Source: Lepidodermella squamata
Lineage: Eukaryota > Animalia > Gastrotricha
Length of the DNA: 64,000 bases
Assembly: GCA_047495785.1 (NCBI GenBank)
Contig: JBLDXI010000038.1
Location: 558,001 to 622,000, forward strand
Direction of reading: 5' to 3'
Both the position numbers and the translations under genes were made by a program. This document shows, in pieces, positions 21,389 through 53,743 of this stretch. Below the pieces are notes generated by a model. The model was not told the DNA's origin. It made no database searches and saw only the letters and a program-made list of their open reading frames with translations. The stretch's first letter is position 1. Each line of letters begins with the position of its first letter.

Positions 21389-23040
21389 TTATTGCAAATG
21401 AAAAAAACGAGATTTTCGAGGGCGAGAGAGCTCGATTGATGGAAAGCGCAAAAGACGCCCTTGCTCCAAGCAATTTACCGCCCATGATCGCAACTGCACC
21501 TCGTCGTAGTCCACCCTCGATGGGTCACCGCCGTTGATGATTTCGCACAAGTTGGCCATGAGGTGGAACCCGCAATCACTTCCGTTTGTCTGTTGTGAAC
21601 AAGCCACGAACTCGATCGATAATCGGCGTTTAGAGTCACACCAAAATTTGCCATAGCGGTCAAATAAAGCATCGCGATACGTTTGTCTTAGTTTGTTGCC
21701 CTTCGGCGTGAGGCTATCATAAACGCGCACGGTTCGAACACCGCCCTCGCAGTGTAGCGTCGAGGACAGAATCCAGTGGTCTCCGATGTGGTGCGGATGA
21801 ACACTCAAATACCGTGTCGCCGAGTGAACAGGCAGAGCTTCGTATCGATTAGCTTCAGCCGCAGCTGGTTGATTAGGGAAGATTTCCGAGAATTCCGGAT
21901 CCTCCGGCTGAATTGGTAGGTGATCTCGCTGAAAAATTGCCAAGATGATAGTAACGATGTCGTCGGGCATCCATGTACCTGAAGAAGACAATATTTAGCT
22001 TATACAATTCGTTAAAAACAAGGAAAAATTACCATTTGTTAGCATATCATTACGCAGGAAATTCCAGTTCGGCATTGCAACGGGATGCTGCTGCGGCACC
22101 AAGACGTCTAGCTCGCGTGGCTGCTTAGCTGCGACCTCGCCAGAGTCGGCTGGCGATAAAAGTCGTTTCTTGGAGCTGGTGGTGATCGGCTTTAGCTCGG
22201 CGAAAACGGGCGCGGGCGAATTTTCAATCGGAGCTGGAATCCTGGAAACCCTGCCACCCTCGAACCAGGGCGTCAGATGAGATAGAAAATCATAAGCGCC
22301 GACGATAGGAGAGGAGTAGTAGTCGTCAAAGTTAACAGCATTGCTGGTATCGGCATTGCTGGCTGGCGCAGACGTTTCTCCATCAGCCCACGGTGGAAAC
22401 AACCCGGCGCATTTTTGGGGTGTTTTCAGATTTATTTCGCGATTGGTTTCCCGCCGAGGCTCGATTTCGGGCAGATCATCGCTGATAATTGGCGGGGAAT
22501 CTTGGAACAAGGCCGCCATTGGCGGAGATCTGCTGCTAACTGCTGCCGTGCGATTTTTCAGCGCAGCGGACAGGCTTGGCGGACTTGCCAGTGACGTAGT
22601 AGCATTGAAAACGGGCGATTCGGCGACTGGCGACGTTGGCGATTTGAGAGAATGGCCGTTTTTCAACCGGGATTTTAAGGCGATCGATTTCACAGCTTGC
22701 GTCTTCATCGCTTTTTGTCGCGGCTTCCTCGGCTTCGAGGATTTTTTCGAGGATTTCGCAGGCGCTGTTGTCGCAGGCGGTTGAGGCGACTCCACGTCTA
22801 AGCCGAGGCTTCGCTTTTCCTCAGCTTCGCATTCCAGTAGACGAGCAACGAGCTTGCTGCTTTGTCCTAAAAAAAAATTAGGCACATTTGAAATGGATGG
22901 AATAGACAAAAATAGATGGAAAGACATATTTTTTTAATTACCTTAATTTTCAAATTTAATCGTAAAGAGTGGTTATTTGCCCATACCGTATTTGCTTATT
23001 TTCCCTATTGTTGATATTACTACTACTATTAGTGGACTAT

Positions 23041-23075
<35 letters not shown>

Positions 23076-25778
23076 TGCGAAATTTCTAAACAAATTGACC
23101 ATCCCAACCTAGAGTGAATCTAATTAATTTTAAATTTAACAATTCACCTTTGGCAACGTAAGGTTTCAGTTGAAGACCGGAGGCTTGTAGCTCAGCGTCG
23201 TCTTACTTTCCATGTTTACGGGGTCAACTCGCGCCAGCACCGCATTTCGGCCGTCGTTGACTAGATTAACGATTCGATACGGTCCGATAAATCGCATCGT
23301 TCGAACCTTGCCACCTTTTCGATCGGCCCGCCTCATGTTGGCCAACATGACCAATTGACGGACTTTAAAGGGTTTGCCGGTATTGTGGCGACGGTTGTAG
23401 TCCCGTTGCTGCTTAGCCTGAGCTCGAGCAGTATTCTTAGCCGCTTTGGCTCTTATTTTAGTTTGGACGGTAACTTCTTGCCGCATTGTTGTGATAATAT
23501 CATCGAAGTCGAACTCCTTATTCATAGCCTTCTCAATCTCTTCCTCGTCGCTGCTTAGATCGCCATCTCGGCCGTTGTTGTTGCCGCTGTCGCTGTTGGG
23601 ATTCGAGTCTGGCAATTCAGTCGGGTCCAGAGGTGGTCCCAGCGCACCCATCTTCACGTCGATCGGCGTTAGCATTTTGTAGCTATAAATGAGATCGGCG
23701 GGCCTTACGCCAGTTGTTCTATGTTTTGAAGTCCGAATCGAAAATAGGGCGCTGGTGACGTAGCGTGGCCACTCGTCGAAACCGACGACGCGAAGGCACT
23801 TCAGCAAAATCGACTTTAAGGTTCGGTTGAACCTTTCAACCTTTGCCTAAAATAGGAAAAAAAATTATAAAAAAATGAATCTATTTATTAAAAAAATTTA
23901 TATTTGTAGACAAATAACAATTAGGATTCGGCAAATTATCTAGATTTCCATAGTTAAATTTCAGAAAATAATTTTGCATTAACCATTATTTTGATGACTC
24001 TCAACCTCTATTTGACCGTTATTAGGAATCGACTTAACTTAGTGTTATATATTAAGAAAAATAATAAGACAAGCGCCTCACCTGCGGATGGTAGGATGAA
24101 GTGACTCGCTGCTCGACACCGGTCCGCTCGAACAGAATCTGAACAACGGCGTTGATGAACTCCCTGCCCTGATCGTTAATCTGCACTCGATAGCAACCGT
24201 ATTGACGCATGAACTCCAGCAGGGCTTCGGCGACTGATAGCGCCGATTTATCCTTGATCGGATAAGCGTGCGGCCATTTGCTGTTGTAGTCGCCAACGGA
24301 CACGAAGCCGATGTAGCCATCCTCGGTCGATTTAGGCATGATGGCAATGTCTGCTCCCACTATAACCATAGGCCGGTCAGGCACTTCGATCGATTTCATT
24401 TCGGGCCTGTCCTTCGGACCAGGGTTGGTCTTTTGGCACTTGTCGCACTCCTTGACGAAGGCGCCAACATCGCCCCACAGTTCGTGCCAATAAACGCTGG
24501 CTGCGAGTTTTTCACTAGTCAGCTGTGCACCTCGGTGACCAGCGAGCGTTACGGCGTGACTATCGGCACCGTCATCGCCTCCTTAAATATTTGAAAATTA
24601 TTAGTATAGGTAGGTAGGTAGGTAGGTAAATTTAGTAGGTTAATGATGGTTACGGAATGACGAGGGTTTCAAAAAATTGGAAATTTTGAATATTTAGGTA
24701 ACCTTACCCTTATAGAACGGAAACTTGTGAAATATTTAATTTTACTAAATATTCAAAACGCACATCAAATTAAAAAAATTAATTTACGGGCCAATTATTG
24801 GCATGTCTATTCCCAAGTTCTAGGTAGAGGACGTAGCTTACTAACCTTGGTGAACGAGCTTGATCAAATCGAGTTTTTCTTGGTCGCCTTCAATGCAGCG
24901 GCACCATTCTTCGCCGTCGCTTTGCGAAGTATTGCGCCTCCTATGGTACAAGTTACCATCTGCCTTGACGCAGTAGAAGGTTGTTGCCGACTTTCTCAAC
25001 GATCTTTTCCGGTCTAAAATCATAGAAAGACAAAAAAAATGGAATATAACCACATCGCTTATAGGAGCAAAATTGTTAATTATAATTAATACCATATTCC
25101 TAACTCAATTCCTAACTGAAATCCCAAATCAAAACCTATCCTACATCAAATAATAAACCCTAGAATAACAGTCCCAAAAATTAACCCAAGTAGTGGGTTA
25201 AAAACAACCCGCCTCGAATAATAGCGGCTGAAAAACAGCGCAAAACCAGGAGAATCACGTGGACAGGGGATACTGAATCGAAATTTTACTTAGTACGGCT
25301 TGCCTTTTCAAGACTGCCTTTTCAAACAAGTGATGATACGACGTTTTCGTTTTAATATTGCCTCCCTAAAATAAAAGCCTCCTGGAATGATTGCTCGATT
25401 TCTTACTATTGTTCAATTTTCGAACTCGGAAAAAATACTTATATTCGATTAAATACGAAAACCATTACAAATTCTACACGTAGCTGGCACAATATTAAAT
25501 TAAAAACGCCTACCTTTACGTTTTTGAGCCACAGGAATTGCCAAAATCCAAGCAGGATAACGCCCTTCGGACAGAAACATCTTCAGATCGGCGAATGACC
25601 AATGCTCGCCCTTCTTCTTGTCTTCCATCTTGTCACCCTCATCGCCACTGCCCTCGCCATTCGACGGTTTCTTACCACGTTTACCACGTTTCTTACCACG
25701 TTTAGACGCGGGGGTAGGCTCGGGCGAGACTTGATCGCGCGGCTCAACATCGCTCGTCGACGAAATTGAGACAGACAT
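21389..25778 (-). CDS. Ginger1 transposase: YPYY region, H2C2 zinc finger, DDE integrase core, GPY/F motif, C-terminal Ulp1/SENP-like cysteine protease
   Basis: GRYP...FY...GNLY; LVH...GH...YW...CDKCQK; VGADIA, INDQGREF, SYHPQ|AKVERFN; FIGPYRIV; protease motifs DHWIL, VYDSL, QQTNGSDCGFH. About six exons; start codon approximate. Confidence 0.9.
23015..23074. repeat. (TAC)n microsatellite inside a Ginger intron
   Basis: Direct reading of TAC repeats. Confidence 0.9.
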
Positions 25779-26965
25779 AGCAGTTGTAGGGTGTTGTTTT
25801 AAGATTAATCGTGAAATTACAACGTCAAAAGTGGCGAGAAGAATAAACGCGGGATCCACCGCACCCGAGACAAGCGCGGGATCCACCGCGCACGAGACAA
25901 GCGCGACTTAGTTGTCACGCAAAGGTAACGCTTTGATCATTCGCGCGCACCTACCGCCGCCTTCGACTCTCAACGCGACAAGTCGTGCGGCGCTTATCAA
26001 GTGACGCCGTCAAAATTACGCGCGCATTCACCCATTTATTTGTTCATTGTTTTTCGTACAAACGTGTCAACTTTTACACCTGCATCATTCACCTGAATGT
26101 AGGGGGATAGATCGTTCTGGGGGGAAGGGCCTTATCGGCTGGGTAGGCCATTAACACCTGTGGCTACTGTATGTTTGTTCGTAGAGGGGAACAGTTACGG
26201 AGGGGGGCCGATTAATACGCTACACCGGTGCTCAGAATTCGGACGACGAAACCCACTCTAGGACGGTCATTCAAAGCTTACTTACAAGACTGCTTTCTTT
26301 ACGCAACCTTTCTTTACATCGCACAAAGCACAATGATTAAAATACGATTTTTCCACCCAATCAAGTTTCGTTAGCAACATGTTTTATTTTCTTATTTCAT
26401 GTCATCGATAGATATAGTATCAATATGCAGTCGATTTCCATAAACCGCCTGTGGATCAGGAATTCACTCAAATTCTTGATTTTTGCAAGGTTAATATAAG
26501 CAATGCATTTGTATAAAAGATCAACTGTACACGAGGTGGGTTTGCGTCAGCAGGAAAATCAATAATATTTCTCGACCACAAACGCACGAACGGATATAGT
26601 AAATTCCGTAAAACTGGAATCTGAATAAATTCACAACCATCAGTTTTCTTTTAAAAGACATCGTTAGGCCAACAATTTAAAAAAAGCACAACCACATTTT
26701 CTTTCATTTTGAAAAAGAGAGCGCATAGTTTCAACAATTAAGGAGTAGCAAAAGGAGCGTTTTATATACACGATTAATTCTCGCTATAAATATTGGCAAT
26801 ATTTGATGACGTGCGGTTCAAGCTGTGAAACCTTCCAAACACAAGACAGTTACGCCAAGTGAGGCAAAGAATTCTGCTAAATCTTACTCGGCATGTCAGT
26901 TTATAAAAGGAAGAGCGATGAGAAGAATTTATGGGTGACGAGGAAACCTATACAGGTTAGTTATT

Positions 26966-35320: not shown

Positions 35321-38300
35321 ATGGACTCGACCATAAGCGGTCAGCAGGATGGAAATGAGAGAGTCGATAACTCATCCGGTCAAGAAATGACCTCCGATCG
35401 CCATACCAATAGCGTGCCGATGTTCGAAGACAAAAGTAATCTTGAACGCCACTCAAGTTTGCGACGGGTTTCTACAATGCCGAGGAGGTAATAATTGTTC
35501 ATTTTTCCATAATTTTTGCTTGTGATAACTTATTCTGCACGGTGCGACAATGAAGCTGTCGGCCAGCCAGGTCGACGGTTTTCCGCTGAGTTTTTTGGTC
35601 TAAATATAGATCAATAGTTGCGAGAGCATGCACACAGGAAATTGCTGATTAAGCTCGGAAGTTTCGATCTTCGATTTCTCAATATTTTCATACAAACTGT
35701 GATTTTATTCTGCATATGGTACAAGCTTTATCACCATCCTGTTTACGAAGCCCATTTCATCACCGTAGAACATTATTGTAATACGGGGCATAAATTTACG
35801 ACTGCCGTACGCGCTTTCAGCTAAAAATAAAAGATTTGCATAGGTATAGCTTGCAAAAACTATCAATACGTAGGTATGTTCAAAGTTCCATTCTTTACTC
35901 TTCCGAAAATCAGGAACCGATCAGCGCCCAGACAGTGCGCTCGTTTCTCGTGACATAGCTATGCTAAGAAAAAGCGCGAGAAACTTGCAGATACACCAGC
36001 CCTTTCGCTGCATTCACCGCTTTTCTTGGGATATGTTTATTTTTCCGCCCGGCAAAAAGTATAACCGAGATATAACGATCAGCCGGTATTTTCTTAAATT
36101 GTTCCTTGTTCCAATTTTATCCAAAACGATATCTCTTAAGTTTTGTATTGGCGTGAAAAAGTCATGCTTGGTTTAGGCTAATAGGTGGCTGTAACATCGA
36201 TTTTTAAGAAATAATAATGTCCACATCTTCAAGCGACGTGAAGTTCATGCCTTAGGTAACCGGGCAGCCCTCTTTTCCCAAGTTACTGTCCGCCAGGAAA
36301 CATTATTGGCATAATGACGTTGAGTAGTATATAGAATTGTTTAGATAAACAAGGCGCTGATTATGATAAATGGCGCACAGTCAGCGCCGAACATCTAAAA
36401 AGCTGTTTGCTGGCCTGCAATAGGAGCGCGTAAAAGAATGTTGGAACTGGGAAGTGTCTGCGCTTTACCTCGCGAATAGTAAGCTCATTATCATTAGCTT
36501 TTTAGATCAGACGGCTATAAAGCGCAACAAGCTGGCGAACTTGGGCGGGCAGGCGGCCATACAGCAAGCGCCTATCATCACGTGGTGCCGCTGCTGCGCT
36601 CGCATTGCACCCGAATGGGCGCTGCCGCTAGTCACGCGAACGCAAAAGCGCTGTGTGATCGATACGCAGCGATCACCGATGATAATGATCGTAAAATATT
36701 GTTCGCGCTGATTTTACGACGCAGGCCTTCGGGACGGTGTAACTTGCGCCGCAGCCGCCGCCGCTTTCCGCTGGCCTAGTATATGAGCTTCCTCCTTTCC
36801 GCCTTTCCCATTTAGCGCGATCACTCGTGTGATTGACTCGTGTTTTGTTGATGCAGTCAGTCGATGCCCTCACCTGTTTGTCGTCTTTTAGTCACAAATA
36901 ATAAGCCCCTGGTTTTGTTGTTCCTTTTGCCTTTTTATTCTATGAAGACAATCCATCCGCGGGGACTCTAGGGTATAGAGGCTTAAAGCAGAACATCACG
37001 ACCGAAAGCAGAGCGCCGTCATCGGCCGGCTTGCTTTTCGCTGCTGCTCCTTTGATTCGCAGCGTACACTGGCGACCAGCGATCGGCTCGCGGCTCGCTA
37101 TCGAATCGCAGGTCACCAATAAGAGCATTATCCATCGCTTGACTGCATTACGCACAACAATCGGCGGAATGACTCGCGAGACCGCGATTCCGCGTGCTCC
37201 CTAGTGGCGCGGCAAATCTCGTCATGCCATTTACAAATATTACTCGCCCGCGCCCACCAGCCAACCCGCGTTTTTGGCCGAGAGATGTCCACTTCAAGCG
37301 AATTCACTTTTTCGCAACTTTCTATAGCTAAAAGCGACAAAATTGCTCACACTTAATTTTTTGTCACTCAGCCAAATTCTTCCTTTTGTTTTATTTGACA
37401 GGGTGACTTACGATGTTACCGAAAAGTGGTACTTTGTAGGAGGCGCAAGTGACCCGGGCCAACTGATACCGCCCGATATGGCCCAGGCTGATGACGAACT
37501 GCAGCGAACAGCAGTGCCGACATCGCTCCGGCGGGAAGAATCGACCAAACCAATCGTCGTTACCCCGGTGATGATTGACGAGGTCGGCAAAACAACGAAA
37601 AGCCGGCCGGATACTCGTGTGCCGTCGCCAGTTGCCTCAGACGTTGGGCTGTTCGCTGAAAAATCGTTCATTTGGATCGGTCGCGAAAATTACGTGCGAA
37701 GAGCGGCGATCCAACTGATTACTTGGAGATAAGTTTCCATCAATATTTTACTTAAAAAAGCTTTATTGAAGTCGTTTCATTTTTTTACTTGGTTTGAGCG
37801 GCTGTCAATATTCGTCATCTTAGTCAACTGTGTTACCCTGGGTGCCGTTGACCCTTGTGAGGGCGACACCTGTGTGACTTTACGCTGCTCGATTTTGCAG
37901 TTGCTCGACCACGTGATTTTTGCGTTCTTTGCGGTCGAAATGCTCATAAAATTGCTGGCGATGGGCGTCACAGGCAAAGGTGCTTACCTAGGCGAATCGT
38001 GGAACCGGCTTGACTTTTTCATCGTCATTGCGGGGTTTGTTTCTTTTTTAATTTTCTTTAAACTTGTCAAAGCAGCATTAATCCTTAAGAGTCCATTCGC
38101 ATTCTAAACTTTTTCCTTTACTATTCTTCTTCTAACTACTCTTCAAACTTTTATGGTTAAGAGGATAAATTTCTTGATTTAATTGTTTGTGAAAATGTTC
38201 TCATTGCTTAATTTTCAAGAGAACAGCTCAAAAGCAACTAAATTTGATAATTTTGCTGATATATAGAGCTGCTGAGTACGTCTTCGTGATGGAAAACATC

Positions 38301-41300
38301 AACCTGTCAGCGATTCGGACGATCCGCGTGCTGCGGCCACTGCGCGCCATTAACCGCATTCCCAGTTTGCGATTGCTCGTCATGCTGTTGCTCGATACAC
38401 TGCCTATGCTTGGCAACGTTCTGCTCATATGCTTTTTCGTTTTTTTCGTGTTCGGCATTGCTGGAGTGCAGTTATGGTCCGGAGTCTTGCGCCAACGTTG
38501 TTTCTTCCCACCGATCACGGATTCTTCTGCAATGATCTTAGCTGCCTCGCAACCGAACACCGCCTCGGTCGATAGCCAGCAAGGTGACACGAGCACTATT
38601 TCGCTGGTTCAACCAAAGCCTAACAATTCTCCTTCGCCTCTGTACTATCCTTCATTCATGCCGAAATACTACCGACCGCCACAGCGCGACTACGTCTGCT
38701 CTCCTTCGTCCGGTATTCTGCACTGCTCGGAAATCCCCAAATACGAGTCAGTTTCTTTTGAAAAATTCGCTATTGCCTTCCTTTTAGATTACTCTTTCCT
38801 AATTTCACACGATTGCTAATTTCTTTTTCAGGATTCTGAAAAGGTAAAATTAGGTGTGAACGGAATCATGATGAAGCACTGTGTGACTCTGTTGTGAATA
38901 ATGTACGATTGGGGTGGACCATTCGAAAAGTACGAAGATTAGGATCCAATCATTTTTATACTAATTAATATTGAAGCTTTTCCCTATTATTTAACCGTAA
39001 AGCCCGTTGTCTTCTCATATGACTGATAAAGATCAGCTCAAACTAATGCATGCATGCCACAAAAGCCGTAACCGTTGATTGCCTGTCGCTCTTCATGCCT
39101 GTAGGTTCAAGCCATGTATTCCGGGTCATCTGGGCAAATAAAAGAACCTTCTGGGAACTAAGACGATTATTACTGGTTGCAATATCAACTGGGGTAATCC
39201 GAAATTTGATAGCTTTTCTCTAGATGTGGCTCGTGGCTTTCCCCCATATGAATTGGATCAGCATTTACGGTTTTTCGTTCAATCGAAAAACGTAGTTTGT
39301 CGAGAAAAAGTTGAAAACATTCCTATTGAAATTACAGGCAGTACGATAGCATGTGCGTCGATTTATTCGGAAACGACACAGCCGAAACTGCCGAGTGCAA
39401 GTGGTGGTCGGACAATTACACCGAGTGTTTGCCCCTCGGACCGAACCCAGCCCGCGGCACCATCAGCTTCGACAACATCGGCCTAGCATGGGTTGCCATT
39501 TTTCAAGTTATCTCACTCGAAGGCTGGACGGAAGTTATGTATCTCATTCAGGTTTGTGTCTTGTCTCATCAATGCGAAGTGTTGAAGTTGGAAAATTCTC
39601 GTTTCAGGACGCGTATTCGTTTTGGGTTTGGCTGTATTTTGTCACTTTGATCATCATCGGTGCCTTTTTCGCCGTTAACTTGTGCCTCGTCGTTATAGCG
39701 ACGCAATTTTCCGAGACGAAAAGACGAGAACTTGCCAAAATGAAGCAAGAGCGCCGCGCTGCCACCTCGTCCCTATCAACGCTTCCTGAATCTGGCTCAG
39801 TGGCGCGCGTCAGTGTTGCCTCGGGTAGTCAAAGCAACATCTACACGCAGATCCTCGACGTCATTGGTCACGGCGCGCGGAAAGCTTATCGCTGGTATCG
39901 GCGGCGCCAAACTCGCGCTCGGCTGGCTCGCATGGCTGCAAATGGCCAAGTGGAAGGGGACCAACTAGTTGGCAATCTCAACAACAGTACGTCTTCAGCT
40001 CCGATGGCCTTCGCCAATGGTTATTTTTACGATCGGCCAGAACTATGCGCGACGTGCCGGCTAAATCAGCAGAACATGCAAAAAGCGCAAAAAGTCGAAA
40101 AAACGCGCAGCTCGGTCGAAGATGAAGTGTCATCAGAAGCGTGGGTGACTCCAGCAACATCGCCCACTCCCAGCCCTGCTGTCGCTCGTCGAACTCTCCT
40201 TCCCGAAACAGTCGACAAAGAGCCAAGTTCGGTGAGCAGTAACGATGGGTTTTGTTCAGCGGCGGGTAGCGAGGCCGCTCTTGACCGCATACCACCGGCT
40301 AGTGCCGTCGAACAAGGGGCAGAGCAAATCAAGCAGCCCAGTGTATGTCCTGTGTGCCAGCAGCTAAGCCACCCGCAATCTAACCGTTCGGTAGCGTTGA
40401 ATATCAGCCTGAATCAATCGGCGCCGAAACGGCTTCCGCCTGGCTTGATTAAGGTCCGAGAGCGGCTGCTAACATTATTAAATATGGCTCGAAGCTGGAT
40501 GAGGGTTGTTGTTGAGCACCCATCCACCACCTGGGCCATCATGGGCGCCATTTGCATCAACGCCTTGTCGATGGGCGCCGAGCACCACAACCAGCCGGAA
40601 ACATTGACTGCAGTCATAGAAGCGCTTAACCTCGTTTTTACAGCGTTTTTTGTCATTGAAATGCTCGCAAAGGTCTTTGTGTACGGCTTTGTGGGTTATA
40701 TTCGAGATAGTTTCAACTTGCTCGATTTTGTTATCGTAAGTCAGTTATAAATTTGACATAATTCAATATTTCGGTATTTGTCTCGCAGGTGATAATATCG
40801 GTTGTGGAACTGGCTCAAGGCAGTGCTTCAGGCCTGTCGGTTTTGAGGACTTTTCGCCTTGTTCGCATCGTCAAACTTATCCGCTTTCTGCCGGCGCTGC
40901 AGCGCCAACTCTATGTTATGCTGAAGACAATCGACAACGTCGCGACATTTTTTCTGTTGCTCAGTTTGTTCCTGTTCATTTTCTCCGTTCTTGGCATGTC
41001 TCTATTCGGCTGCCGGTTCTGCCCAGCCAACCGTGCGCGCATCGCCATGGAACAACAACAAGCTGCTTATGACGCGGCTGGCAACTGGTCGGTCGACGGA
41101 ATGCCGCCGTTGCGTGACGTCAACGGGACAGCGGCGCCCACGATGGCGCAGTATCAGCGTTGGTTGGAGCAGCAAACCGCGCTGGCCTACCACACCTGCC
41201 CTCGAGCCAACTTTGATTCGCTGCTGTGGTCTCTTCTTACTGTCTTCCAAGTACTCACGCAAGAAGCATGGGCTCAGGTAATAAAGTTTTATAGGTATGT

Positions 41301-44300
41301 TCGATAAAGACTAAAACTTATCAAAACGAACAGGTTTTGAAAGACGGGATGCATTTCACGTCCGAATGGGCTGCGTTGTATTTTGTTGCACTTGTTACGT
41401 TCGGCAATTACGTGCTTTTCAACTTGCTCGTTGCCATTCTCGTCGAAGGATTTAGCACAGACGAAGTAAGACCAATTAAATTACTTGCCTTCAATCACAT
41501 CTTCTCTATATTCGTAAATTAGAAAGATGAATCACCCGGCACTCCGAGAAGCTCGTCGGTGCCAGCAGAGGCGCAAACCCCAGGTGTAGCACGCTCCGCG
41601 TCCCAAAATCCTCCAACAGATTTACCAACCGCATCTTCACCTCCAGCAATTACCGTCGAAGACGTCGACGATCCAAATGGGGAACGGATATCTATTTTAC
41701 CTGGTAACGGTGGAGTAAGTGTTCCGAAAGAAGAGCCCGCGCCTCCTAGATGGACTTTGCGCAATTTATTCCGTTGCGGCATGACACGTCGTCAAAGCTG
41801 TTTCTCATCACTTCGCACTCGGCTGATGAACCACAATTTTTTCATCGAGCGCCGTGATTATTCTCTTTTCATGATGGCGCCGAACAACGGCCTCCGGCGG
41901 CGTTTGCTGTGGTTAGTGACCCGCACGCGATTCGACCATGTTGTCCTGGTTCTGATCATCGCCAACTGCGTCGCGATCGCCATGGAGCGCCCGAACATCG
42001 AACCTGGATCGTTCGAGCGTCGAGCTTTAAACATTGCCAATTACGTATTCAACGCGCTATTCGGAATTGAAGCTGTGCTCAAAATAGCAGCCCATGGTTT
42101 TGTCATTGGCGAACACACTTACTTGAAGAATAGCTGGAACGTGCTCGACTTCATTCTCATATCGCTGTCGACTCTGGACATGCTGCTCGAGGCGACTGAT
42201 GCCAAGACAGCGTCGACGAAAATTCTTGAAATTTTCCGCGTAATGCGGTTATTGCGAGCTTTGAGGCCGTTGCGAGTCATCAACCGAGCGCCTGGCCTGA
42301 AAATTGTCGTGCAAACGCTGGTTCTCTCAGTGAAACCTATAGGAAACATCGTTCTAATCTGCTTAGCTTTCTTCCTCATCTTTGGTATTCTCGGGGTACA
42401 GCTGTTTCGAGGCTGCTTCTACAAATGCGTCGCAAACGGGCGAACTGCACCAGTTAATACTAATTCTAGCATTCTCAGCTCAAACATGTCTTTCCAAGCG
42501 CCATTTGGCCAAGCTGACGCGACATCAACCTCAACGCCGCCAATCAACGTGGGAGTTCCTGGCTCCGGTGTCGGTTCGGCGGCTGCTCTGGTTGCAGAAG
42601 CGCTCATGTCTGTGAAAACTAAGAACGATTGCCTTGCTCTCGGCTTCGAGTGGGAAAATGAGAATTATAATTTCGATAACCTCGGAAACGGGCTGATGAC
42701 GTTGTTCGTGTTTTCAACGTTCGATGGCTGGGTCAAAATTACTCGTGATGGTCTAGATTGTGTTGGCGTCGATAAACAACCCATCCATGATTACAACCCA
42801 TGGCGCCTAGTCTATTTTATTTCCTTCCTTCTTATCGTTGGCTTTTTCGTGAGTTCTTATTCATACTGCGAATATTTTTTGGAGTTTTAGTTTTTTTATA
42901 GGTGCTCAACATGTTCGTGGGTGTTGTAGTTAACAACTTTCAGAAGGTGCGCAAGCAAATTGAGGCAGAGATAGAAGCAAAGAAGCGCGAGATCAAAGCG
43001 AGAAAGCTACTCGAGCGGCTCCAAAACAAGTCGGAAACGAAGAAAAGAGGTACGTATAAAGCGTTCGAACGCTGCTATTTTTTAAATTTCCCCAAGGTCA
43101 CCCATTAATTTGCCAACAATCAAATGCTTCCGTCGAAGAAGAAGCTCATTGTCTTTGTGTGAAGCTGAAAAAACAGTGCAATTTTTTATTATGAATTGCA
43201 AGCCAACCGCAGCTTCAATTTGCTACCGGTATTTAATTTTTTCGTGTTCATTTGGGTAGCGTCGAGACTCTTCAGTTTATCCACCTTCAAAAGGGTCAAG
43301 CGACCATCGCTCAAGAGTAAAAATTGTATTACGAACTTGAATTTACGTTCATTGAGCTCACCTAATATTTTGACTCTTTCCTTCTTAATACGAAGCTACG
43401 GATTTTTTATTACTTTCATTGCCTGAATAATTTATTTTTAATCTGGGTCAAATGAAAATTGCGCCTCACTTGATTTTTCCATCTAGGATTATAACTTCTA
43501 TTTCCTGAATAATTTCCTTTGGAGCAGCACTGAAAAAAACTTGACCATCACATGGAGATTAATGCTCTCATTACCAATGTTTCCCCTGCACCAATATTTG
43601 CGATTTGTTCGGGCAATTTTATCCCTCATATTAAATGATCCGTTCTACGACATTTTTTATTTAATACTATTATTATTTGTGGTCCTCAGTCTACCGCCGG
43701 CGTCTTCGAAGGATGATGATGTGTTATAGGAGGACGGCGGGTAGTCTAGATGGCGACAAGCCGCCGCCAGCCAACGGTAACGCCAGTTGTAGCAGTCATG
43801 AAACTGATGAGTTTTCATCGGGCGGCGCCTCGCCAGCACCAAGCTTACTAAACCACACCGTTCGCAGCTTGCACCGCCTCGATAGCTGCGCAAGCTCACG
43901 CCAACACGTGCGCGTTACACTGCCGGTCAACCGCGTCGACAGTGAGCCCATCCGCATGCGCCTCGACTCAGCCTGCTCCGCGTCGTCGTCGCGCTGCTCC
44001 GTCATCCTCAACAATCACCCCGAACACCACTCACAGGTGACGAGCAGCGTTGCGACGCCGTCCGAGAGTGGGGTTGCGGTTGATGCGCATGCGACTGGCG
44101 ATGCGGCGCCCCCGTCATCGCCTCGAGGCGGTGGGTTGCCGAGGGGCAAAGGTGCAGTGCCGAGTCGCTTCACACAGCGCAGAAAAGCCACTGTATTCAG
44201 TAGGTCACATTGCGAGCACGCGTTTTCACGTATGATGATGTATCACCTCGGAACTTTTCGGGACTTGTTCGCAACATGATTAAGTTTGCTTCACATGAGT

Positions 44301-46752
44301 ATTTAACATCGGTTTCCAATTTCCAGCAGGGTATGATTAAGTTAGTAAATTTCCTCGCCATTTTGTCGCGAAAAGTTCCAGAGGTTTTGCTTACCCCGCT
44401 TTTAATATGCTTCGAGGACTATGCAGCCGCGTTCTGTCAATGTCGCCGAATGATTCTTTGAACCCGCTTAAATAAATTGATGTGCTTTGGTATATGACTA
44501 AAAGGCTCGACAATCTTGTCACGCTTTGCCATTCTTTATTTTTCACTCTGAATTTGTCACGTCCGCCAGGTCGCCTTCAATCCATGCACCTCATGATGGG
44601 TGTAGTTTATGAATTCGGTTTGTAGCAACATCTATATGTATCAACCACCCTTTGTGGAGTTTTGGGAATTGAAAAATTACCTATAACAAGGCGTTTGATG
44701 GTGTGAATTAGATTCAACAAACCGTAGTAGTTCAATGTAATAAAAATAACCGAGTTGCTTCTTGGCAACTCAGTTCCCCTACTCCATCCTGCATGTGTTA
44801 CGACTGTTCTAGAGGGCATGCACTGCCGACAAAGACATTTCCGGCTTTTCATCACTGCCTTGCTTTTTGCTTGATGTCCTTGTTGTTACTGCTGTGTATT
44901 CTTCTGTTTTTTCCAATCAATGAGAACAATTAATTGAACGTTGAACGTTTTCGTCTAGTTATGGGGACGAACGACGATGCGTATTACTGGCGAGCGTATC
45001 CAGCTTGGCGCAGGTGCTTCCATCGCTTCTGCACCCACAAGTATTTCGACTTGGCGGTGGCTGGCATCATTGGCATTAATGTTTTGGTTATGGCGACCGA
45101 ATTCCACCTAATGCCGAAAAAGTTCCTTCTTGCAGTCAAAATTTTAAACTACATCTTTACCGGTGTGTTCATCTTCGAAGCGGTCACTAAACTTATTGCA
45201 TTTGGACCTCGGCGGTATTTTCGCGAGCGGTGGAACCAGCTCGACATAGCCATCGTCGTGCTGTCGCTTGTCGGCATTTTCCTCGAAGATCTCGACAACA
45301 AATTCATTCCGATCAACCCGACAATTGTACGCGTAGCTCGCGTCTTCCGCATCGCGCGTGTTTTCAAGCTGCTTAAAATGGCCAAAGGCATTCGCGAACT
45401 GCTTGATACCGTGTCAGAGGCTCTGCCCCAGGTTATAGCTGAATTCATATTAAATTGTTGTGATAATAATTTTACTCAAATTCATATTTTAGGTCGGAAA
45501 CCTGTCGCTGCTGTTTATGCTACTGTTTTTCATCTACGCCTCGTTAGGCGTCGAGCTGTTCGGCAAGTTCGATTGCACATACAAAATCTGCGAGGGTTTG
45601 TCAAGGCACGCCAACTTTCATAACTTCGGCATCGCTCTGTTAACACTCTTTCGCATTTCAACCGGCGATAACTGGAACGGAATTCTCAAAGACACGCTGC
45701 GCCTGATTCACGATCCCGAATCGCACTGCGCCACAGAGCCTGGCGGCTGCTTCCTAGTTCAAATTCTGTCGCCGTTTTACTTTGTATCTTTCGTCCTCGT
45801 CGCGCAATTTGTGCTCATCAACGTCGTAGTTGCCGTTTTGATGCGCCAGTTGGAAGACTCGCACACGAAAACAGAAATCGACCCGGAGAAGATCGAGGCC
45901 GAACTCGAGGGTAAGGTCGAGCAGATTGAGGCCCTCGTCCAGGAAACATGCCCAGAATTAGTCGAACGGCTACAGCATCAAATCGGCGCTGATCGGGATG
46001 ACGCGATTTCCCTAGTTTCAACCGAATACATCTTGCGCGAGCGTGCGAGTTTCGACGCCGGCCAGATCGGTGTGCTGGCAGGCAAGGATTCGTTGTTTCG
46101 ACCTCGCCGAATAGTCGACCGCAGCCAGTCGGCCTCCACGAGTTTCCGCCACAAAACTCGGCCTCGTCTGCTGACGACCGTCGGTGAAAACGTCGGCATC
46201 TTCGCAGCAGCGATCGAAGCTGCGCAGCAAAAGCGCAGAGATGCCGAAATGTCCCCAGAAGGCGACATGAGCGCTGACGAGGAGAGAAGAAGTATCGTCG
46301 ACTCGGCGGTGCTCGAGCAGGTGTTCAAAGATCTGGGCGAGCAGTTGCATGAGGCTGACGAACGCAGATCGCCTGAGCGCTCAGCTCTATCTGATCTCAC
46401 TCGAAACGCCCTGAGGCTAGCATCAGCTTCTGGTATTGACCCGGAAGAGGCCGCGCGTCTCGTCGAAGCCTTAACCACCGGTCTTGGCGATGAACTGCGA
46501 TCTGCCGTTGACGTATTCATTGAACTGCGGCGCGAGGAGTTGCTCAACCCCGCCAAGTCACGGGTAAAAAATGCGGCGGCGCGCGCCAAAGTCAAAGTTG
46601 CCAACGGCCGCTCGAACGAACCATCGCATCCGCTTCAGAGTCAGTCGGGACAGAATATGTCAGCGACCACGAGCGATGTAGAAAGCCCGGCTGTTGGAGC
46701 GGATGATCCAGAACTTGCGGCTCTCTTACGTCTACGCACGAGTACGGTGTGA
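35321..46752 (+). CDS. Cav3: T-type voltage-gated calcium channel alpha1 (Cav3)
   Basis: Four 6-TM repeats with S4 segments, an EEDD filter (SLEGW, TQEAW, TFDGW, TGDNW) and a gating-brake-like QFSETKRRE... helix. The first exon 35321-35488 splices in frame (AG|G) to the exon starting at about 37402. Confidence 0.96.
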
Positions 46753-47132: not shown

Positions 47133-48686
47133 TCAAACACCCACCAGCACAGTTAGCATTTTCACGATGTATGCAACAATGTAGCACGTCGTGAGAACGG
47201 CAGCAGCGGCAAAATTATGGCGAATCGTACTCGGCGACGCGCTTTCTGTTAAAATTTGAATACAGTTTGGTAAGACAAGCCGAAGCTCATAAAAGGAAAA
47301 TAATTTCATACTGCAAATGCCGTATAATTGTTCCTGCGTCGTCCACGGGTTTCGAAGGGTCGTCTGTACTTGCTGGGTGTTGACGGACCTTTGCTGCTGA
47401 AGCACCCGTGCCGTGTAGTTTAGTAGCACCTCAGGGCAAACAATGCAGGCCAGACCCTAATAACACATCATTATAACTGGAAATCGAATCTTAAAGCTCC
47501 CCACTCACAGCAGTGCAGTAGCTTTGGCCGACAGTCGGCGTCGAAGTCGTCCATTCAGGTACAGTACAACGGGCGCCCTCGCGTTGCTTGATGGTGTTCG
47601 CGTTCGCTGCAACGCAAATGGTCCACGTGTTGCGGATCATTGAGTCCGAGTCGCCTGTTTCGTCGCGGTAGTACTGGGTGAAGTTCAACGCAGAAAAGCC
47701 GCGATCGCATGCGCAAGTGTGGTCTTCGGCCAAGCAGATGCCACCATTGCCGGCTCCGGATGGCGCATACGTACCTGGAAATGCGATTTCACAAAAACAT
47801 GCTAAGATGAGTCAATACCAGGCCGCTTTTACCTCCCATTTGGCAATTGTCGTCTGTATCACACGAGATTCCGTAATAAGCTTCCTCACATCCGCTGCCG
47901 CTCCAAACGTAGCTCGAAAAGCAAGTGCATGACTGCCAAACCAAGTTGCAGAAGAGTCCTGAAGACAAGCGCCGCAGATTTCGGTTATTGTGTTTTGGCA
48001 ATCTTATTCTTACCAATTTCGGGGTTGCAATCATTATCGGTCAAACATGCGGCGCCGTATTCGGACTGCGCTTTCGTTGACAGGACACAGGTGTTGTTCC
48101 GCCTCTGTAAATTTCATAAGGAAGCAATCTAGATGATGTTGATTGGAATTGGACAACTAACCTCGTATTGTGGCTTGCATCGGACTGAGCCGGCGTAGCA
48201 GTAGGCGCCGCGAGGGTAAGATTCGAGTTCGCCGGCTGAGCAAACCGCGTTTAGCGGCCGATATATTTCTGTTTATATTAATAGGGTAGCATGGTCAATA
48301 AATTTAGCGAATCCTGCTCAAGTTTACTTGGCGAGCAATGGAAACTGTTTCCAGATGTCCGATAGTATTGAGCCTGTCATTTTCAAGGAAATGATTGTAA
48401 TATAAATGAATTTTGGCCTGAAACCACGTTACTTTGCATTGACAAGTGCCCATCTGGCACGGTTCTGTCAAATCATAATACCAGCAAGTTGTGTTTTGCC
48501 CGCATTCTTCGGTTTTCTTGCAAGCTGGTAGTAAAACATTGGCAACATTGAATAGTTGTTGACGATGTCGAGAAAATGTTTACGTTCGTCAAGTTTTAGT
48601 AACGCAGCGGTCAACCAGGTTGTACATCCAAGAATTATGAAGGCCGCTAATACTATATTCAGTGGCATGTGATGTTGAAGCATCAT
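47133..48686 (-). CDS. Cysteine-rich secreted/surface protein (EB-module-like Cys spacing, hydrophobic C-terminus); multi-exon
   Basis: Signal-like MPLNIVLAAFIILGCTTWLTAA; short Cys-rich exons (GCEEAYYGISCDTDDNCQMG, CLAEDHTCACDRGF); C-terminal AAAAVLTTCYIVAYIVKMLTVLVGV. Family not recognised. Confidence 0.65.
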
Positions 48687-49247
48687 CAATCCGATGAGCA
48701 ATTTAGTATAGCAAACCAGAGCTTGATTTTCAGCCTATGCGGGTGCGGTCGTTCAAGATGCCGCGATTCAAAACAGCGCTCACTGAATGATATCCATATC
48801 GTCTAGGCGACTTCGCATTCAAGCTTGCATTCACCAAACTCAGAAAGAGTTGCTAAACGACCGACGCGAAGCTCAAAGCGTCGCTCAAAAAGCTATTCAA
48901 ATATTATATCAGTCATTCAAAATCTGAGCAGGGAAAAGTCTCAATTTACTCGGTCTAATTTCTACGAACCGCGGCTATTCGATTTCAAATTTTCGCAGCT
49001 TGTTGAATCGATGACCAAAAGAAGACGAAGTTTAGACCTAATAGACGTCACCAAGGAAAACTCGAACCTTTTCAGCTGTGATAACCGATAGAGTTGGTTC
49101 GAGAAATTCTTCAACTGATAAGTCTAATGAATTACTAGTAAGAATTTTTCATAAGATCTGAAGTCCGAAAGCATCTCTTTATTCTAGTTAATTTAATTAA
49201 TTTAATTCAGCCTCTTTAAACGAAAAATAGTTGATGATCCGCGACTG

Positions 49248-50226
49248 CTATATTGAAACATGCTTGAAACCTTCAGTTGTTTTTTTGTACAAATCTGGGA
49301 CACCGTCGAATCTTACAGCGTACGTGTAACGTACAACCGCCATGATACGATGTGGCTGTGGTACCCAGTGACTTTCTTCCACGTTCTTACTGCTCGACCA
49401 ACAGTTTGCTTCAATACACCACGTTAGAAATTTACCTTATTGACAAGAACAAAAGTGAATAAGACATATCGCTAAGAGTATATGAGATAAAAAAAAACGT
49501 GCATTTCTTCTGGCAGTGTCGATCCGAGACAGCGCGAGATCTCGTTTGTTTCACAGGTATCATTCTCTGCTCCACGAAATGCTCCGCAGTCTTTTCGAAG
49601 GCTACTTCGAGAGGCTCTCGAAAAAGTTGGGCCGGAACGACGATGTTTTCCACTATCTTCCCGGCGCTCATCGAATTTGAAATGATTGATTTCAGACTAG
49701 CCATATCAAGTTGATATGGCGGCAACGTGACCTTCCACAAACCATTAGCCTGAAGTTCAACGCAGGTTTTGTTAACCTCCGTTGCGATATTTTTCACAAA
49801 AACGATGCGCTTGCCAAGCTCAGCATTGTTGACTTTAAAGTCTTCCACCACTTGTTGCATAAACGCGTCGGCTCGATCAGTGTAGACGAAAAGTAGAGCG
49901 CGTATGGGTCTGCCCTTGATGAAATCGAAAAACTTGGCGTGGTTTTCGCGGTCACGACCTTCGCTGTCGAGGTAACCAGGAATTTCGACGACAAAATCGA
50001 CGTTATTCCAAGCGATTCGAGTCGTGATATCGACCGTAACCGAATAGTCACCACTGCCCTCCAAAATTGCAAGTTGATCAGGGGCAGCCAAGCGGTTGGC
50101 GATGTAACTTTTTCCCGTTCCAGTTTGTCCGTACAAAATTATATGACCGCTGGTATTGGTAGCTTCGTTGCAATAAACGACGTCGGCAGTTAAAATAGAC
50201 CATGTCAACACGAAATAAATATTCAT
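49248..50226 (-). CDS. Signal-peptide-bearing AIG1/GIMAP-like P-loop GTPase, paralog B
   Basis: MNIYFVLTWSILTADVVYC signal; G1 GQTGTGKS, G2 SVT, G3-like EIPG. The last exon ...VVRYTYAVRFDGVPDLYKK is homologous to paralog A and is joined through a probable GC-AG intron at 49436-49502. Confidence 0.8.
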
Positions 50227-50349
50227 CGCAAACCTAAACAATAATAAAAATATAAACTTTAATGCATTATTCATATGGTATTTTGATAGCTTGGTATTTC
50301 CACATAAAATGGTAAAGAACTTGAAATAATTTGCATTGATTTGGCTGTA

Positions 50350-51523
50350 CTAATTGGAACTCGTCGCATTAACCCTGGAGGAATGATTGCCTGGTGGAAC
50401 CTCAACTTCCTTGTAACGAATGTGCGTCCTTGCGTAAATGTCAGCCACGTCATCAAAGCGCATCGCGTAGGTGTATCGAACAACTTCGAACAGTTGGTAC
50501 TGCTTTGGAACCTTTTCGTCAGCCGTAATCGTTTGCCACGTTGTCGAGCAAGATTTCTCCTTCTGCATTAGAACATCAGCCATTTTCGCAGCAGTTCCAA
50601 CTGCGAGGATTACGGTACCAATCACCTGTCGCTTCGATCGTCGTGTACCTACAGATATGTATTTGCGGCGAAAATGGAACACAGAAATATTAGAATTAGA
50701 GTGAAAGCTGGGATCAAATAATACAATTAGTACTGGGCACTGCGCGGCTAACAGATTCGACCTTCAGTCGGGAAATATGAGTAACGAAATTTTCGACTAT
50801 GTCTTCCCGAACCTCAAGAATATAATTATTATTGAAAAAATAGAAAATAATGAAGAAAAGTCGAACCACGTGAAGAGGCTGCTTGAACAGAGAGAGCGGC
50901 GTGAGAAGACGCGTCAATTTGACAGGCAACAGTTTTTGAATTGAAGCCTTCAATACACGCAAGTTTTGCTGATACAGTTTGACGTTGATCTTTTGAAATC
51001 CTTCAAACATTTCAGCATCCGGCGCTTGGCGGTTCAGAACTTTGTTTTTCACGAGAATGATGTTAGGGGCCAGTTGGCTGGCGTTGAACGCCGCTAACGC
51101 CTGCTGCATAAACTTGTCGACGCGACGAGTGAAAACAAATAGCAACGCTCGAATACTTTGATCTTTGAGAAAGTCGACAAATTTAGCTTGGTTTATTCGA
51201 TCTTGATTCTCCGTGTCGAAGTACCTATATGGGTTTTGCCGATTCTTGATGCATTAAAGGGGAATATGGCAAACTTTCAAGTGATACCCTGGAAACTCGA
51301 TTAGCTTTCCTAGATGATCCCAAGCTTCAGCTATCGTGGCTTGTTTCGTAACAGATCGATCGCTTGCACCTTCAAGATAGGGAATTTTCGCGGCAGCAAG
51401 CCGATTAGCGATGTAGCTTTTGCCAGTCCCAGTTTGGCCGAAGATGACGACATAACTGCGCTTGCGATCGCCTTGGCAACTTGAAGTGGCGAAGATCGCG
51501 ATGCAGAAGACAATACTTCTCAT
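50350..51523 (-). CDS. Signal-peptide-bearing AIG1/GIMAP-like P-loop GTPase, paralog A, four exons
   Basis: MRSIVFCIAIFATSSCQG signal; GQTGTGKSYIANRLAA identical to paralog B; EFPG|YFDTE; IRALLFVFT; C-terminal VVRYTYAMRFDDVADIY. Confidence 0.82.
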
Positions 51524-53743
51524 AACCGACGATAAATTGTTGGTGCGAGGCTTTGGGAGTTGAGCTCTTTTACTGTTGCAACCGCTTTTAAAATGGCGTT
51601 TTGAATAACGCAATACAAGCCAGAATGAAAGCTAAATTTCGCGCCCATGGTTTTTCGGGGTCCTATGTCAATAGGCTGTTGGAGGATTAGGCGATCTAGT
51701 TTGTTCGGACAACCTATAGAGTGCTCACTCCCAGTCAAAAACATGCAAAGCCATGGGGGCTATACCTATATATGGCAGGTGATTGTCGTGTCGTAAAAAA
51801 CTGTAGTAATAATTAACAGGCTTTGGATCATCGCTTAACTGAGAGACGGCCGATTTTTGTATACCGAATTTCCCAAGGTTGCTATCTTAGAAGTGGTCGA
51901 TAGGCGACAGAGTAGTCGGTGTTCCTTTTCGACCCTGACCCTTTGAGGCGGTCCACACCTGAACGACTTTTCGAAGCCAAGTTATTCATCAGGTCGAGAC
52001 GATCATTTTGACAGCTGATTTAGATCTAGAACCCCCATATTTTAATTGGTACACATTTTCAAAGTTAATTTACCCTTTATAATCTTTACTTTGTGCGTGC
52101 GAACGATCATGAGTCATCAAAATTGGATGCTCAAAATTAAGCTTTGCGGAAAAAACTCTTTCTCAATAATTACGCAACAATGTTTCCCTTGGCATATCAC
52201 ATTCTTGCAAGGACTCTGGGGACCCTCGGCCCGGCTTTCGAACGTGCCATCCAACGCCAAAAACAAAAGCAACTGCTAGCCCGGCGAAATTTTAAAGCCC
52301 GTGCTCAATCCAATAAATGGCGTGATTAAATAATCATCGTATTAAATCCAGGAAAACTGCTGTAGATTGACATTTGTGCGATCTAGCATGCGCGTTTATA
52401 GACTCATTTTTTGAAGCGTTGTTGAGGAATAAATGTTGTGTATTTACTACCTGTAATTATTTTGTGTTTGATTAAGATCGGAGATCGGGACTGTAAACAC
52501 CGGCTAGACGGGCTAGGGATGAAATATCAGATCATCAGTTATATACTGAAACTGTAAAGTTCTTGTTAAGGCAATTGTATTCCGATGCTCGATATGTTTC
52601 TGTTTAGAATTTCAGGATTATTACTATTTTTAATCGCGGGTAGGTATTCCTGCTTAATGATTATTTTCTGAAATATGAGGTTGTTACGATTTCAAGTTTC
52701 TAGTTTGCTCGAAAATTCATGCGCTGGTATTCCCGGGAAGAAAAGTTCTCTTACAAAGGTATTGTCAGGATTTTTCAATCGCTTTCATAACCTCCCGCTA
52801 ATTAGGAGACCAAACATCCGACTACGGCTGGCTACCAGCCCATCAAAGCGAGGCATTGGCGCCCGAAACAACCTGCTATAATAGGTAGCTCTCGGCAAAA
52901 GAAGCAATGTCATCCCCAATGTTCGTCCCATCAAGACTGGATCGATCATTGGCGTTCCATTGGCGTTTTCGGCAAAATAAGACAAACGCAATAAGACCTT
53001 TCTTTTATTGTACGATCAACTCCATTTGCGTCGTAATGAAATCGTTACATCCGCCAGTCGAACAGATTAATAGGTACAAGTGTTAATAATTATACCATCA
53101 TAATTGCATCTCTCTTCGTTTTTCGTTTCCACAAGAAAACAAACAGCAGCAGTTTGAAGAGTGAATAACGTGTGCAGATGATAATCAAGTTTCAGCAGTA
53201 AATTTTTCAAACAACGTGCAGATTAAACACGATTAGCACAATGCACGCTTTCGCAGACTCGATTCAACAAACAACCGAAATATCTGAAATCATCGATTTT
53301 TAGAAAAACTTCATATAAAATTTTTATATTGCGCGATCTCGAATAAATAGGCATTTGACACAGCTTTTCGTTTTCAATTAATATAATATCACCATAATCT
53401 TGGCTCATAAACTCGCCACCTTAAAATAATACGTTTTCAGTCATGGCTCGAGATATAAAAGGATTTGACTGGAAGTTTTAGGATAAAATAACGTTAAGGA
53501 AGCCCAAGAATAAAAAGAGAACAATCGAAGTTGACCCTGCAATAGATTGCGATTCTGGAAGATTTTTTTACAAAAATTTTATAAATTGGCGGTCAAGCAT
53601 TAGCAAGCATCAGCAGTTCATAATTTTGCGCGGGAATTTTCATCAGCAAAAAATTCGTTGTAATAATGTATAGTAACAATGAACACATAGATATTCCGAG
53701 TACAGGGTAAGGAAAACTTGTTGATTGGTTGCTTTCAACTCGC

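Follow-up and report, generated by a model that had tools for sequence, protein, structure and literature searches.

A furin consensus and a hydrophobic peptide at the predicted hairpin tip of an AIG1/GIMAP-like GTPase: likely convergence on the cleavage-activation logic of class I fusion proteins

The window, by which we mean the whole 64,000-nt stretch of DNA analysed, comes from a compact animal genome and carries genes for a T-type calcium channel, a longin SNARE and an M16 peptidase, along with a Quiver-family gene. A Cav3 exon was 38-55% identical to tick, butterfly and vertebrate channels alike, and this equal distance indicates that no close relative is on record. The channel gene (37300-46750, plus strand) is very divergent; two of its exons, at 43066 and 44985, lie ~1.9 kb apart with an unexplained 204-aa open reading frame (43665-44279) between them. 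A retroelement-like or Ginger-like element occupies the minus strand from 21389 to 25907; its integrase zinc-binding and core domains lie at 24052-24582 and continue at 23166-23846, and an open reading frame at 21389-21994 weakly resembles an Ulp1/C48 protease; no env-like open reading frame was seen in it. The two genes of interest, A and B, lie in tandem on the minus strand. One DNA data set, which may be the source itself, agrees with 48800-51858 at every base. A dispersed repeat (51716-52000; summed contig depth ~500-1050 versus 99 for single-copy sequence) is found just upstream of A, and a Cys-rich multi-exon gene with weak EGF-like matches (47491-48500, minus strand) just downstream of B.

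Gene A is predicted to have four exons (51523-51288, 51224-50867, 50812-50725 and 50648-50350), which form an open frame of 326 aa after removal of introns 51287-51225, 50866-50813 and 50724-50649. Its features, with the hairpin fold of exon 3 assigned from homolog models, are as follows.

51288..51523, minus strand: exon 1, with a signal-peptide-like start (~51470-51523), the G1 P-loop (51416-51439), the G2 Thr, and a G3 Glu for the usual Asp
51225..51287, minus strand: predicted intron 1, 63 nt, GT-AG; the aligned place in paralog B is without an intron; frame open
50867..51224, minus strand: exon 2, the remaining G domain; G4 is N-K-V-L, without Asp; 38% identity to B
50813..50866, minus strand: predicted intron 2, 54 nt with a GC of 0.20, stop-free and in frame; its removal gives a length equal to that of B
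50725..50812, minus strand: exon 3, outgoing strand of the predicted β-hairpin, aligning with family strand 1; its last base is the first base of Cys228
50649..50724, minus strand: predicted intron 3, 76 nt, interrupting the Cys228 codon
residue 227, minus strand: N-glycosylation sequon created by the intron 3 splice
50629..50640, minus strand: RSKR furin consensus, residues 231-234, with one more Arg ahead; the only R-x-x-R in the protein
50551..50628, minus strand: tip segment, residues 235-260, an N-terminus if cut; hydrophobic core 236-254 at 50569-50625
50548..50550, minus strand: Cys261, predicted cross-strand partner of Cys228
50350..50547, minus strand: returning strand, then the conserved Y-A-x-R-F-D turn, a third strand and the C-terminal tail up to the stop; matched to the family hairpin by hhalign with probability 96.7, E 3e-10

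The original prediction had confined the peptide to 50560..50648; the peptide is present there but reaches 50548, with its second Cys 12 bases past 50560. The Cys residues of A are 7 and 16, in the putative signal peptide, and 228 and 261, which leaves two in the mature chain. As judged by hydropathy alone, in A, B and the homologs, both genes have a hydrophobic N-terminal extension (KD9 of 3.27 in A and 1.79 in B), and a comparable start occurred in 1 of 23 homologs. N-glycan sequons number 4 in A versus 0-4 in the homologs, and thus these counts do not set A apart. A Cys ends the signal-like stretch in both A (51476-51478) and B (50170-50172), with one at a similar place in homologs P0026 and P0003; as a speculation, this Cys, if N-terminal, could carry a lipid modification. 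All three introns of gene A have a GT right after them and short direct repeats at both borders, and all are absent from paralog B and from the one homolog seen complete as DNA in a long contig, a combination that suggests recent intron gain after transfer.

Exon 1 gave Pfam P-loop matches below the cut-off, and A contains the G1 motif GxxxxGKS and the G2 Thr. In a profile search GIMAP4, 7, 5 and 2 came first (GIMAP4, E 5e-8; GIMAP7, E 1.3e-6), the alignments shown stopping at about the G4 region. When a homolog model was used as the query, the top Foldseek matches were GIMAP7 and Toc34; in VIA, MnmE led the ranking with Z 15.7 (rmsd 3.0 over 149 aligned residues) and GIMAP7 came ninth with Z 13.3 (rmsd 3.3 over 156). 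An AIG1 match at E≤0.1 was obtained for 9 of 16 family members; by the PF04548 gathering score the A and B exons were not listed, P0001 reached 20 bits versus a cut-off of 27, and P0009 passed with 38.8. G3 of AIG1 proteins is defined as D-x-P-G in PMC7053062, and this motif is found in most homologs; A and B have instead E-x-P-G, and their G4 is N-K-x-x without Asp, not of the T-x-x-D type. The AIG1 conserved box and IAN motif were likewise not seen in A and B in the profile alignments, and the strict AIG1 motifs thus fail. With the G3 Asp replaced by Glu and the G4 Asp missing, GTP hydrolysis may be no more than a vestige once the G domain is outside the cell. A and B are like the AIG1/GIMAP GTPases (PF04548; paraseptin relatives Toc34 and IRG) in their G domain and tandem duplication, and the membrane-associated scaffold role given to the latter in PMC3417536 can be counted as a further likeness. 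They differ in having a long C-terminal β-hairpin rather than helices or coiled coil, and a signal-peptide-like start, which the snail AIG genes described in PMC7053062 do not have. GIMAP-like domains move among eukaryotes, endosymbionts and viruses (PMC3417536).

A profile made from the A and B G domains and searched against 1.84 billion proteins gave 99 matches at E≤0.001 and 19 at E≤1e-10, and a second search added 7 more. Most of the top family matches were 276-300 aa long and shared the entire C-terminal part, and by this sequence comparison they are a family of ~20 unnamed eukaryotic proteins set apart from generic GTPases, with few named sources (a chrysophyte alga and a marine protist transcriptome). 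A and B form sister branches (98/95) and are the only family members that score in the window. The AlphaFold model of homolog P0001 (pLDDT 90.9) contains the G domain, two strands (184-218 and 229-263) with a tip helix between them (220-226), and at the base a third strand, and the C-terminal part of a second homolog, modelled alone, gave the same fold (pLDDT 90.3); the modelled C-terminal part is thus a 35-residue β-hairpin with a short tip helix. The L-F-x-x-P-L base, the two long strands and the Y-A-x-R-F-D turn are present in A and B, and the hairpin profile matched the A model with E 8.5e-24 and the B model with E 6.3e-21. Family tips are 16-26 residues long and rich in Gly, aromatics and Lys/Arg.

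Locus scans found 3 family loci in metagenomes and 0 in prokaryote genomes, and viral contigs scanned with the family alignment, B and A's last exon gave 0 loci; as these scans need near-exact words, neither zero shows absence. A word-index search with B yielded 0 of 256 candidates. One intronless family member (locus L002, 5764-6687) has a GC of 0.45 in a contig of GC 0.31 and looks horizontally acquired; the gene content of that contig has what we take to be a bdelloid-like look, and its neighbours are presumably a long TPR-repeat protein, a methyltransferase-like gene and a glucanase-like gene. A weak viral match to P0006 (46 aa, 30%, E 3e-4) was taken as chance, and the BFVD matches were to the G domain. 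For the hairpin fold, Foldseek gave no match at E≤0.001, none of 48,161 chains reached Z≥5, and nothing usable came from the Atlas features; the hairpin was without a match in Pfam families, PDB folds and large Atlas clusters, which does not show that the fold is new. We found no description of a G domain plus hairpin family in the literature searched, which left out most subscription journals.

The presence of RSKR in protein A depends on intron 3. As originally predicted, a T|GT splice at 50649-50724 gives the RSKR peptide in an open frame, the splice itself being a prediction. This intron (GT...TAG, 76 nt, GC 0.34) contains no AG over 50708-50649, that is, for ~57 nt ahead of the acceptor, and it is similar in length and GC to the best-defined Cav3 introns of the window (six of 53, 53, 56, 56, 61 and 232 nt, GC 0.20-0.39; 2 of 8 junctions were unresolved). 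When the 54 open models were ranked by the family profile, the claimed splice came 12th, with 272.0 bits versus 280.8 for a model without RSKR; RSKR was absent from 10 of the top 14, and thus the homology score alone does not pick the claimed splice. We set the family profile aside as an arbiter of splicing, since the short tips of the family bias it towards short-tipped models. In favour of a different splicing of intron 3, which would remove RSKR and part of the peptide from the protein, 11 models outscore the claimed one, and acceptor 50601 resembles a Cav3 acceptor in the window. The alternative models, however, lose Cys228, they require introns of 109-135 nt versus 53-61 nt for most clear introns, and the tip that they would discard has a coding-like GC (0.48; GC3 13/32). 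In contrast, the claimed splice yields a Cys at the offset found in paralog B's unbroken exon and in the cross-strand register of the hairpin. We therefore regard different splicing as improbable, and use of intron 50649-50724 as a well supported, although predicted, splice.

RSKR fits the furin consensus R-X-K/R-R (as given in PMC3347325), as had been claimed, and nothing else in the 326-aa protein has even the form R-x-x-R. The best 19-residue hydropathy window of protein A starts at 236 (KD 1.73), so that a basic site whose cleavage would make a hydrophobic N-terminus is present in the sequence. The first 13 residues of this tip are uncharged, with Lys and Asp occurring within the first 18, and as a helix the tip is weakly amphipathic (helical moment 0.29-0.44 versus beta moment 0.02-0.16). 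As an estimate of chance, the 127,996 six-frame residues of the window contain 204 R-x-K/R-R motifs, 2 of which are followed by an equally hydrophobic 13-mer. Within the hairpin the peptide lies at the tip, a place taken in other family members by a short helix or loop made up of Gly, aromatics and basic residues, and it is there that one would expect a part in contact with membranes. A's loop is the longest in the family, 32 residues versus 16-26 in the homologs and hence 6-16 residues longer than any of theirs, and its tip is the most hydrophobic (KD11 2.27 versus −0.79 to 1.70).

The original prediction also placed the peptide between two Cys whose disulfide could hold the cleaved halves together, and the homolog models are compatible with this: counted from two family anchors, Cys228 and Cys261 have the offsets F+21 and R-30, which together give 447, exactly the sum shown by paired residues in the modelled hairpin, so that the two are predicted to face each other across it, in a register transferred from homolog models that assumes no bulge in A. 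Cys occurred at both offsets in paralog B and in 0 of 20 homologs. Since the signal-peptide-like starts and the Cys pair are found together in both A and B, the Cys pair goes with secretion, as a disulfide should. The RxKR motif mostly failed the conservation check named in the original prediction: R-x-K/R-R was found in 1 of 20 homologs, where polar residues come after the site in the hairpin, and in 0 of 61 open models of B, so that at the sequence level the family as a whole does not share the furin motif. A close orthologue of A was not found in the profile search of 1.84 billion proteins or in the word-index search with B.

A likeness of the peptide to class I fusion peptides, above all that of Sendai F, had been proposed from an alignment by eye. 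Against the Sendai entry in PMC8419435 we counted 8 identities in 15 positions and a hand-scored BLOSUM62 score of 41, which was reached by 21 of 1,000,000 same-composition permutations; among 180,583 unrelated 15-mers none reached 30, and the maximum was 26. The likeness therefore exceeds what composition would give, and the eye that noticed it was good, with p an estimated ~0.004 after a few hundred peptide-by-offset comparisons, for one candidate taken from a very large scan. It was, however, not significant in database searches. In PDB, which should contain several paramyxovirus F structures, there was no viral F match at E≤10 (queries of 20 and 32 residues gave 0 matches, and the query with the 98-residue exon gave one unrelated match), and in Pfam no fusion-protein family was found for A.

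The alternative of capture, in which both site and peptide came from the F-type envelope gene of a virus or retroelement and lodged at the hairpin tip, would account for that score and for the added length of A's tip. It is not impossible, because invertebrate Ty3/gypsy elements carry F envelopes that resemble those of paramyxoviruses and include both a furin site and a fusion peptide (PMC13524379). Nevertheless, we consider capture highly improbable. No match was found in PDB at E≤10, in Pfam or in the near-exact-word scan of viral contigs, and there is no viral flank, the peptide being flanked by the hairpin strands of the GTPase family (E 3e-10). The Sendai match is offset three residues from the cut, and its N-terminal three residues are missing; by hand comparison with the six paramyxovirus peptides listed in PMC8419435, 4 of the 8 identities fall in variable columns and 2 of the 6 invariant core residues are kept (the Thr and one Ala). 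The multiple comparisons and the size of the scan also weaken the score as an argument for capture; the likeness is explained more simply by convergence on a Gly/Ala/Val/Ile/Thr helix together with selection from a very large scan. Of the two origins first offered, convergent or captured, we thus keep the former: the likeness is probably convergent and the peptide was probably not captured from a virus. The earlier statement that A is not a standard class I fusogen holds. Class I proteins require two heptad repeats and a transmembrane anchor (PMC3347325). In protein A the maximum KD19 after residue 261 was 0.3, indicating that there is no C-terminal anchor, and helical heptad repeats A and B were not found, the segment after the peptide aligning with a family β-strand; with its poor conservation of the invariant residues, A is not a class I fusogen. 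Sendai F is itself cut by an extracellular protease and is not a furin substrate (PMC3347325).

Paralog B and the spacer that separates it from A are laid out as follows.

50227..50349, minus strand: A-B spacer, 123 nt, GC 0.26, open in the frame common to A's last exon and B
49503..50226, minus strand: long exon of paralog B, with a signal-peptide-like start, G domain, outgoing strand and Cys238
49436..49502, minus strand: T-rich tip region of B (GC 0.30), read either as a GC-AG intron or as a remnant in a shifted frame that includes a stop
49248..49435, minus strand: last exon of paralog B, with a short Cys-rich tip, the second Cys at the cross-strand offset, and the returning strand; hairpin profile E 2.7e-11

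Both Cys are kept in 3 of the 61 open models of B, all with GC donors and with tips of 10, 14 or 24 residues. Directly after B's Cys, a shifted frame encodes R-R-x-x-R followed by hydrophobic residues, and this stretch can be aligned with A's tip without a gap. The possible remnant was scored after it had been noticed; of 5000 dinucleotide shuffles, 0 equalled it when 17 or 20 residues were compared and 65 when 29 were; under a stricter null in which only the T-rich part was shuffled the count was 50 of 20,000, and for real intron stretches 1 of 431. Its frame contains a stop and has intron-like third positions (GC3 3/25 versus 121/238). As the most economical reading, these sequences hint that the ancestor of A and B had a gated tip, which B made into an intron while staying functional. 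Were A and B instead decaying duplicates of a transferred gene, the motif would be without present function. The degenerate G3 and G4 are in keeping with such decay, as is the finding that no GT-AG intron in B keeps both Cys. Yet A is open over 326 codons, B's exons of 241 and 61 codons, ~40% identical to A, show no lesions, and a single 110-nt stretch holds both irregularities; we therefore hold decay to be very unlikely.

The spacer bears on another alternative, in which A and B are one gene. A single TAG separates A's last exon from B in one frame, the spacer is open throughout, as were 499 of 20,000 shuffles of it, and a 54-nt intron at 50373-50320, of modal length and GC 0.35, would remove A's stop and leave a hydrophobic linker (KD19 1.93) as a transmembrane anchor. 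Spliced together in this way, A and B would make a membrane-anchored protein whose furin-armed spike lies outside the cell and whose second GTPase lies inside, a design far nearer to that of a fusogen. However, the spacer has a GC of 0.26 and contains a polyA-like hexamer and, 8 nt ahead of B's start codon, a strong T-rich AG acceptor; the part ahead of an upstream Met was open in 2925 of 20,000 shuffles; and the linker flanks, basic before and acidic after, together with B's Cys pair, fit secretion of B by its own signal peptide. We consider the single gene very unlikely. The upstream in-frame Met, at 50274, also begins a signal-like stretch. The A-B pair could be an operon resolved by trans-splicing.

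Among known systems, class I fusion proteins, paramyxovirus F and the errantivirus F-type env resemble A in that cleavage at a basic site would free a hydrophobic N-terminus. As in paramyxovirus F, this N-terminus would sit on a disulfide-linked half, by prediction, in addition to the match to the Sendai peptide. A is unlike class I proteins in its β scaffold with a GTPase head and in the absence of heptad repeats, a transmembrane anchor and database-level similarity. The β-hairpin pore-forming toxins (aerolysin, CDTb and iota stems), of which protease activation is typical, share with the family a long two-stranded hairpin, and gave weak Foldseek matches (E ~0.01, at least 0.0085); their stems reached TM-scores of at most 0.30 to the hairpin and no Z≥5. 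A's tip, a predicted helix with a low beta moment, would be unlike the alternating transmembrane hairpin of these toxins, and A has no recognised receptor or oligomerisation domain. The G5/E rod domains of SasG, Aap and RpfB are elongated β rods, as is the family hairpin (G5 matches, Z 3.3-4.3), and clusters bearing the EMI region of MEGF10/Draper had TM-scores of 0.40-0.49 to the hairpin; the short, Cys-closed, aromatic tip of B presumably resembles EMI tips. All G5 and EMI scores lie below the tools' bars for a shared fold and come with no sequence match, and are a lead only. A-B toxins of the diphtheria and Shiga type have an enzyme domain, a furin site inside a Cys-Cys loop and then a hydrophobic segment. 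A is like them in this order, with an enzyme-like domain in first place; no sequence or fold match to them was found and, as A's halves would stay zipped along ~30 strand pairs, reduction would not free the G domain.

From these comparisons we propose that A is likely a secreted GTPase bearing a membrane-binding spike that is armed by furin and convergent in origin; its secretion, cleavage and membrane insertion we infer from the features above. A would be secreted, with its C-terminal third forming a long β-hairpin rod whose tip loop is closed by a Cys228-Cys261 disulfide. Furin would cut this loop at RSKR in the Golgi. Strands and disulfide would then hold the cleaved halves together, keeping rod and G domain attached, and the freed, Gln-led hydrophobic helix at the end of a rod of ~115 angstrom (our estimate, from 35 residues at ~3.3 angstrom each) would insert into a target membrane. 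As there is no second anchor, A would bind, tether or damage a membrane, and not fuse two. The cytosolic members of the family likely contact membranes through their short basic-aromatic tip, and A would have lengthened this tip and placed it under protease control, thereby arriving at the class I cleavage-activation logic on a different scaffold. Taken as a whole, this chain of steps is a possibility that we put forward tentatively. Its weakest step is the context, which is likely a role in defence or feeding; the TIR domain fused to one homolog (P0009, Pfam TIR_2 E 2e-13) points to immunity.

The main rival, unlikely in our judgement, holds that the tip is a constitutive membrane- or ligand-binding loop in which RSKR is the usual basic flank, any cut being incidental or inactivating. 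Homolog loops do carry 2-7 Lys/Arg, P0012 has a basic run followed by a hydrophobic stretch with neither signal peptide nor furin consensus, and B's open models have a short Cys-closed tip with aromatics and no site. The weak structural likeness to the EMI region, under the tool's bar as noted, would also fit. The MEGF10 EMI domain is predicted to bind phosphatidylserine (PMC13751773). Against this, the site is a full consensus that occurs just once in the protein and sits inside the Cys loop, precisely where the hydrophobic run begins, and about 1 in 100 such motifs in the window precedes so hydrophobic a stretch.

If the furin-armed spike is real, a secreted form whose ~115 angstrom rod ends in a hydrophobic tip gated by a protease would be a new protein architecture for attacking or tethering membranes, and a clean convergence on the F2/F1 activation logic. 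More broadly, and unlikely as we judge it, a mobile, cytosolic GIMAP-like GTPase on a β rod may have become, in an animal, a secreted, furin-armed, membrane-piercing spike with an independently evolved class I trigger and peptide on an all-β scaffold, and the rod family, found in protists and micro-animals and once fused to TIR, may be an undescribed membrane-attack system. The architecture is odd and rests on one gene, and it is testable; if cleavage does nothing, an unannotated GTPase subfamily of modest interest remains. A with its long gated tip, B with its short one and the cytosolic homologs form a natural comparison set within a family that is small and soluble.
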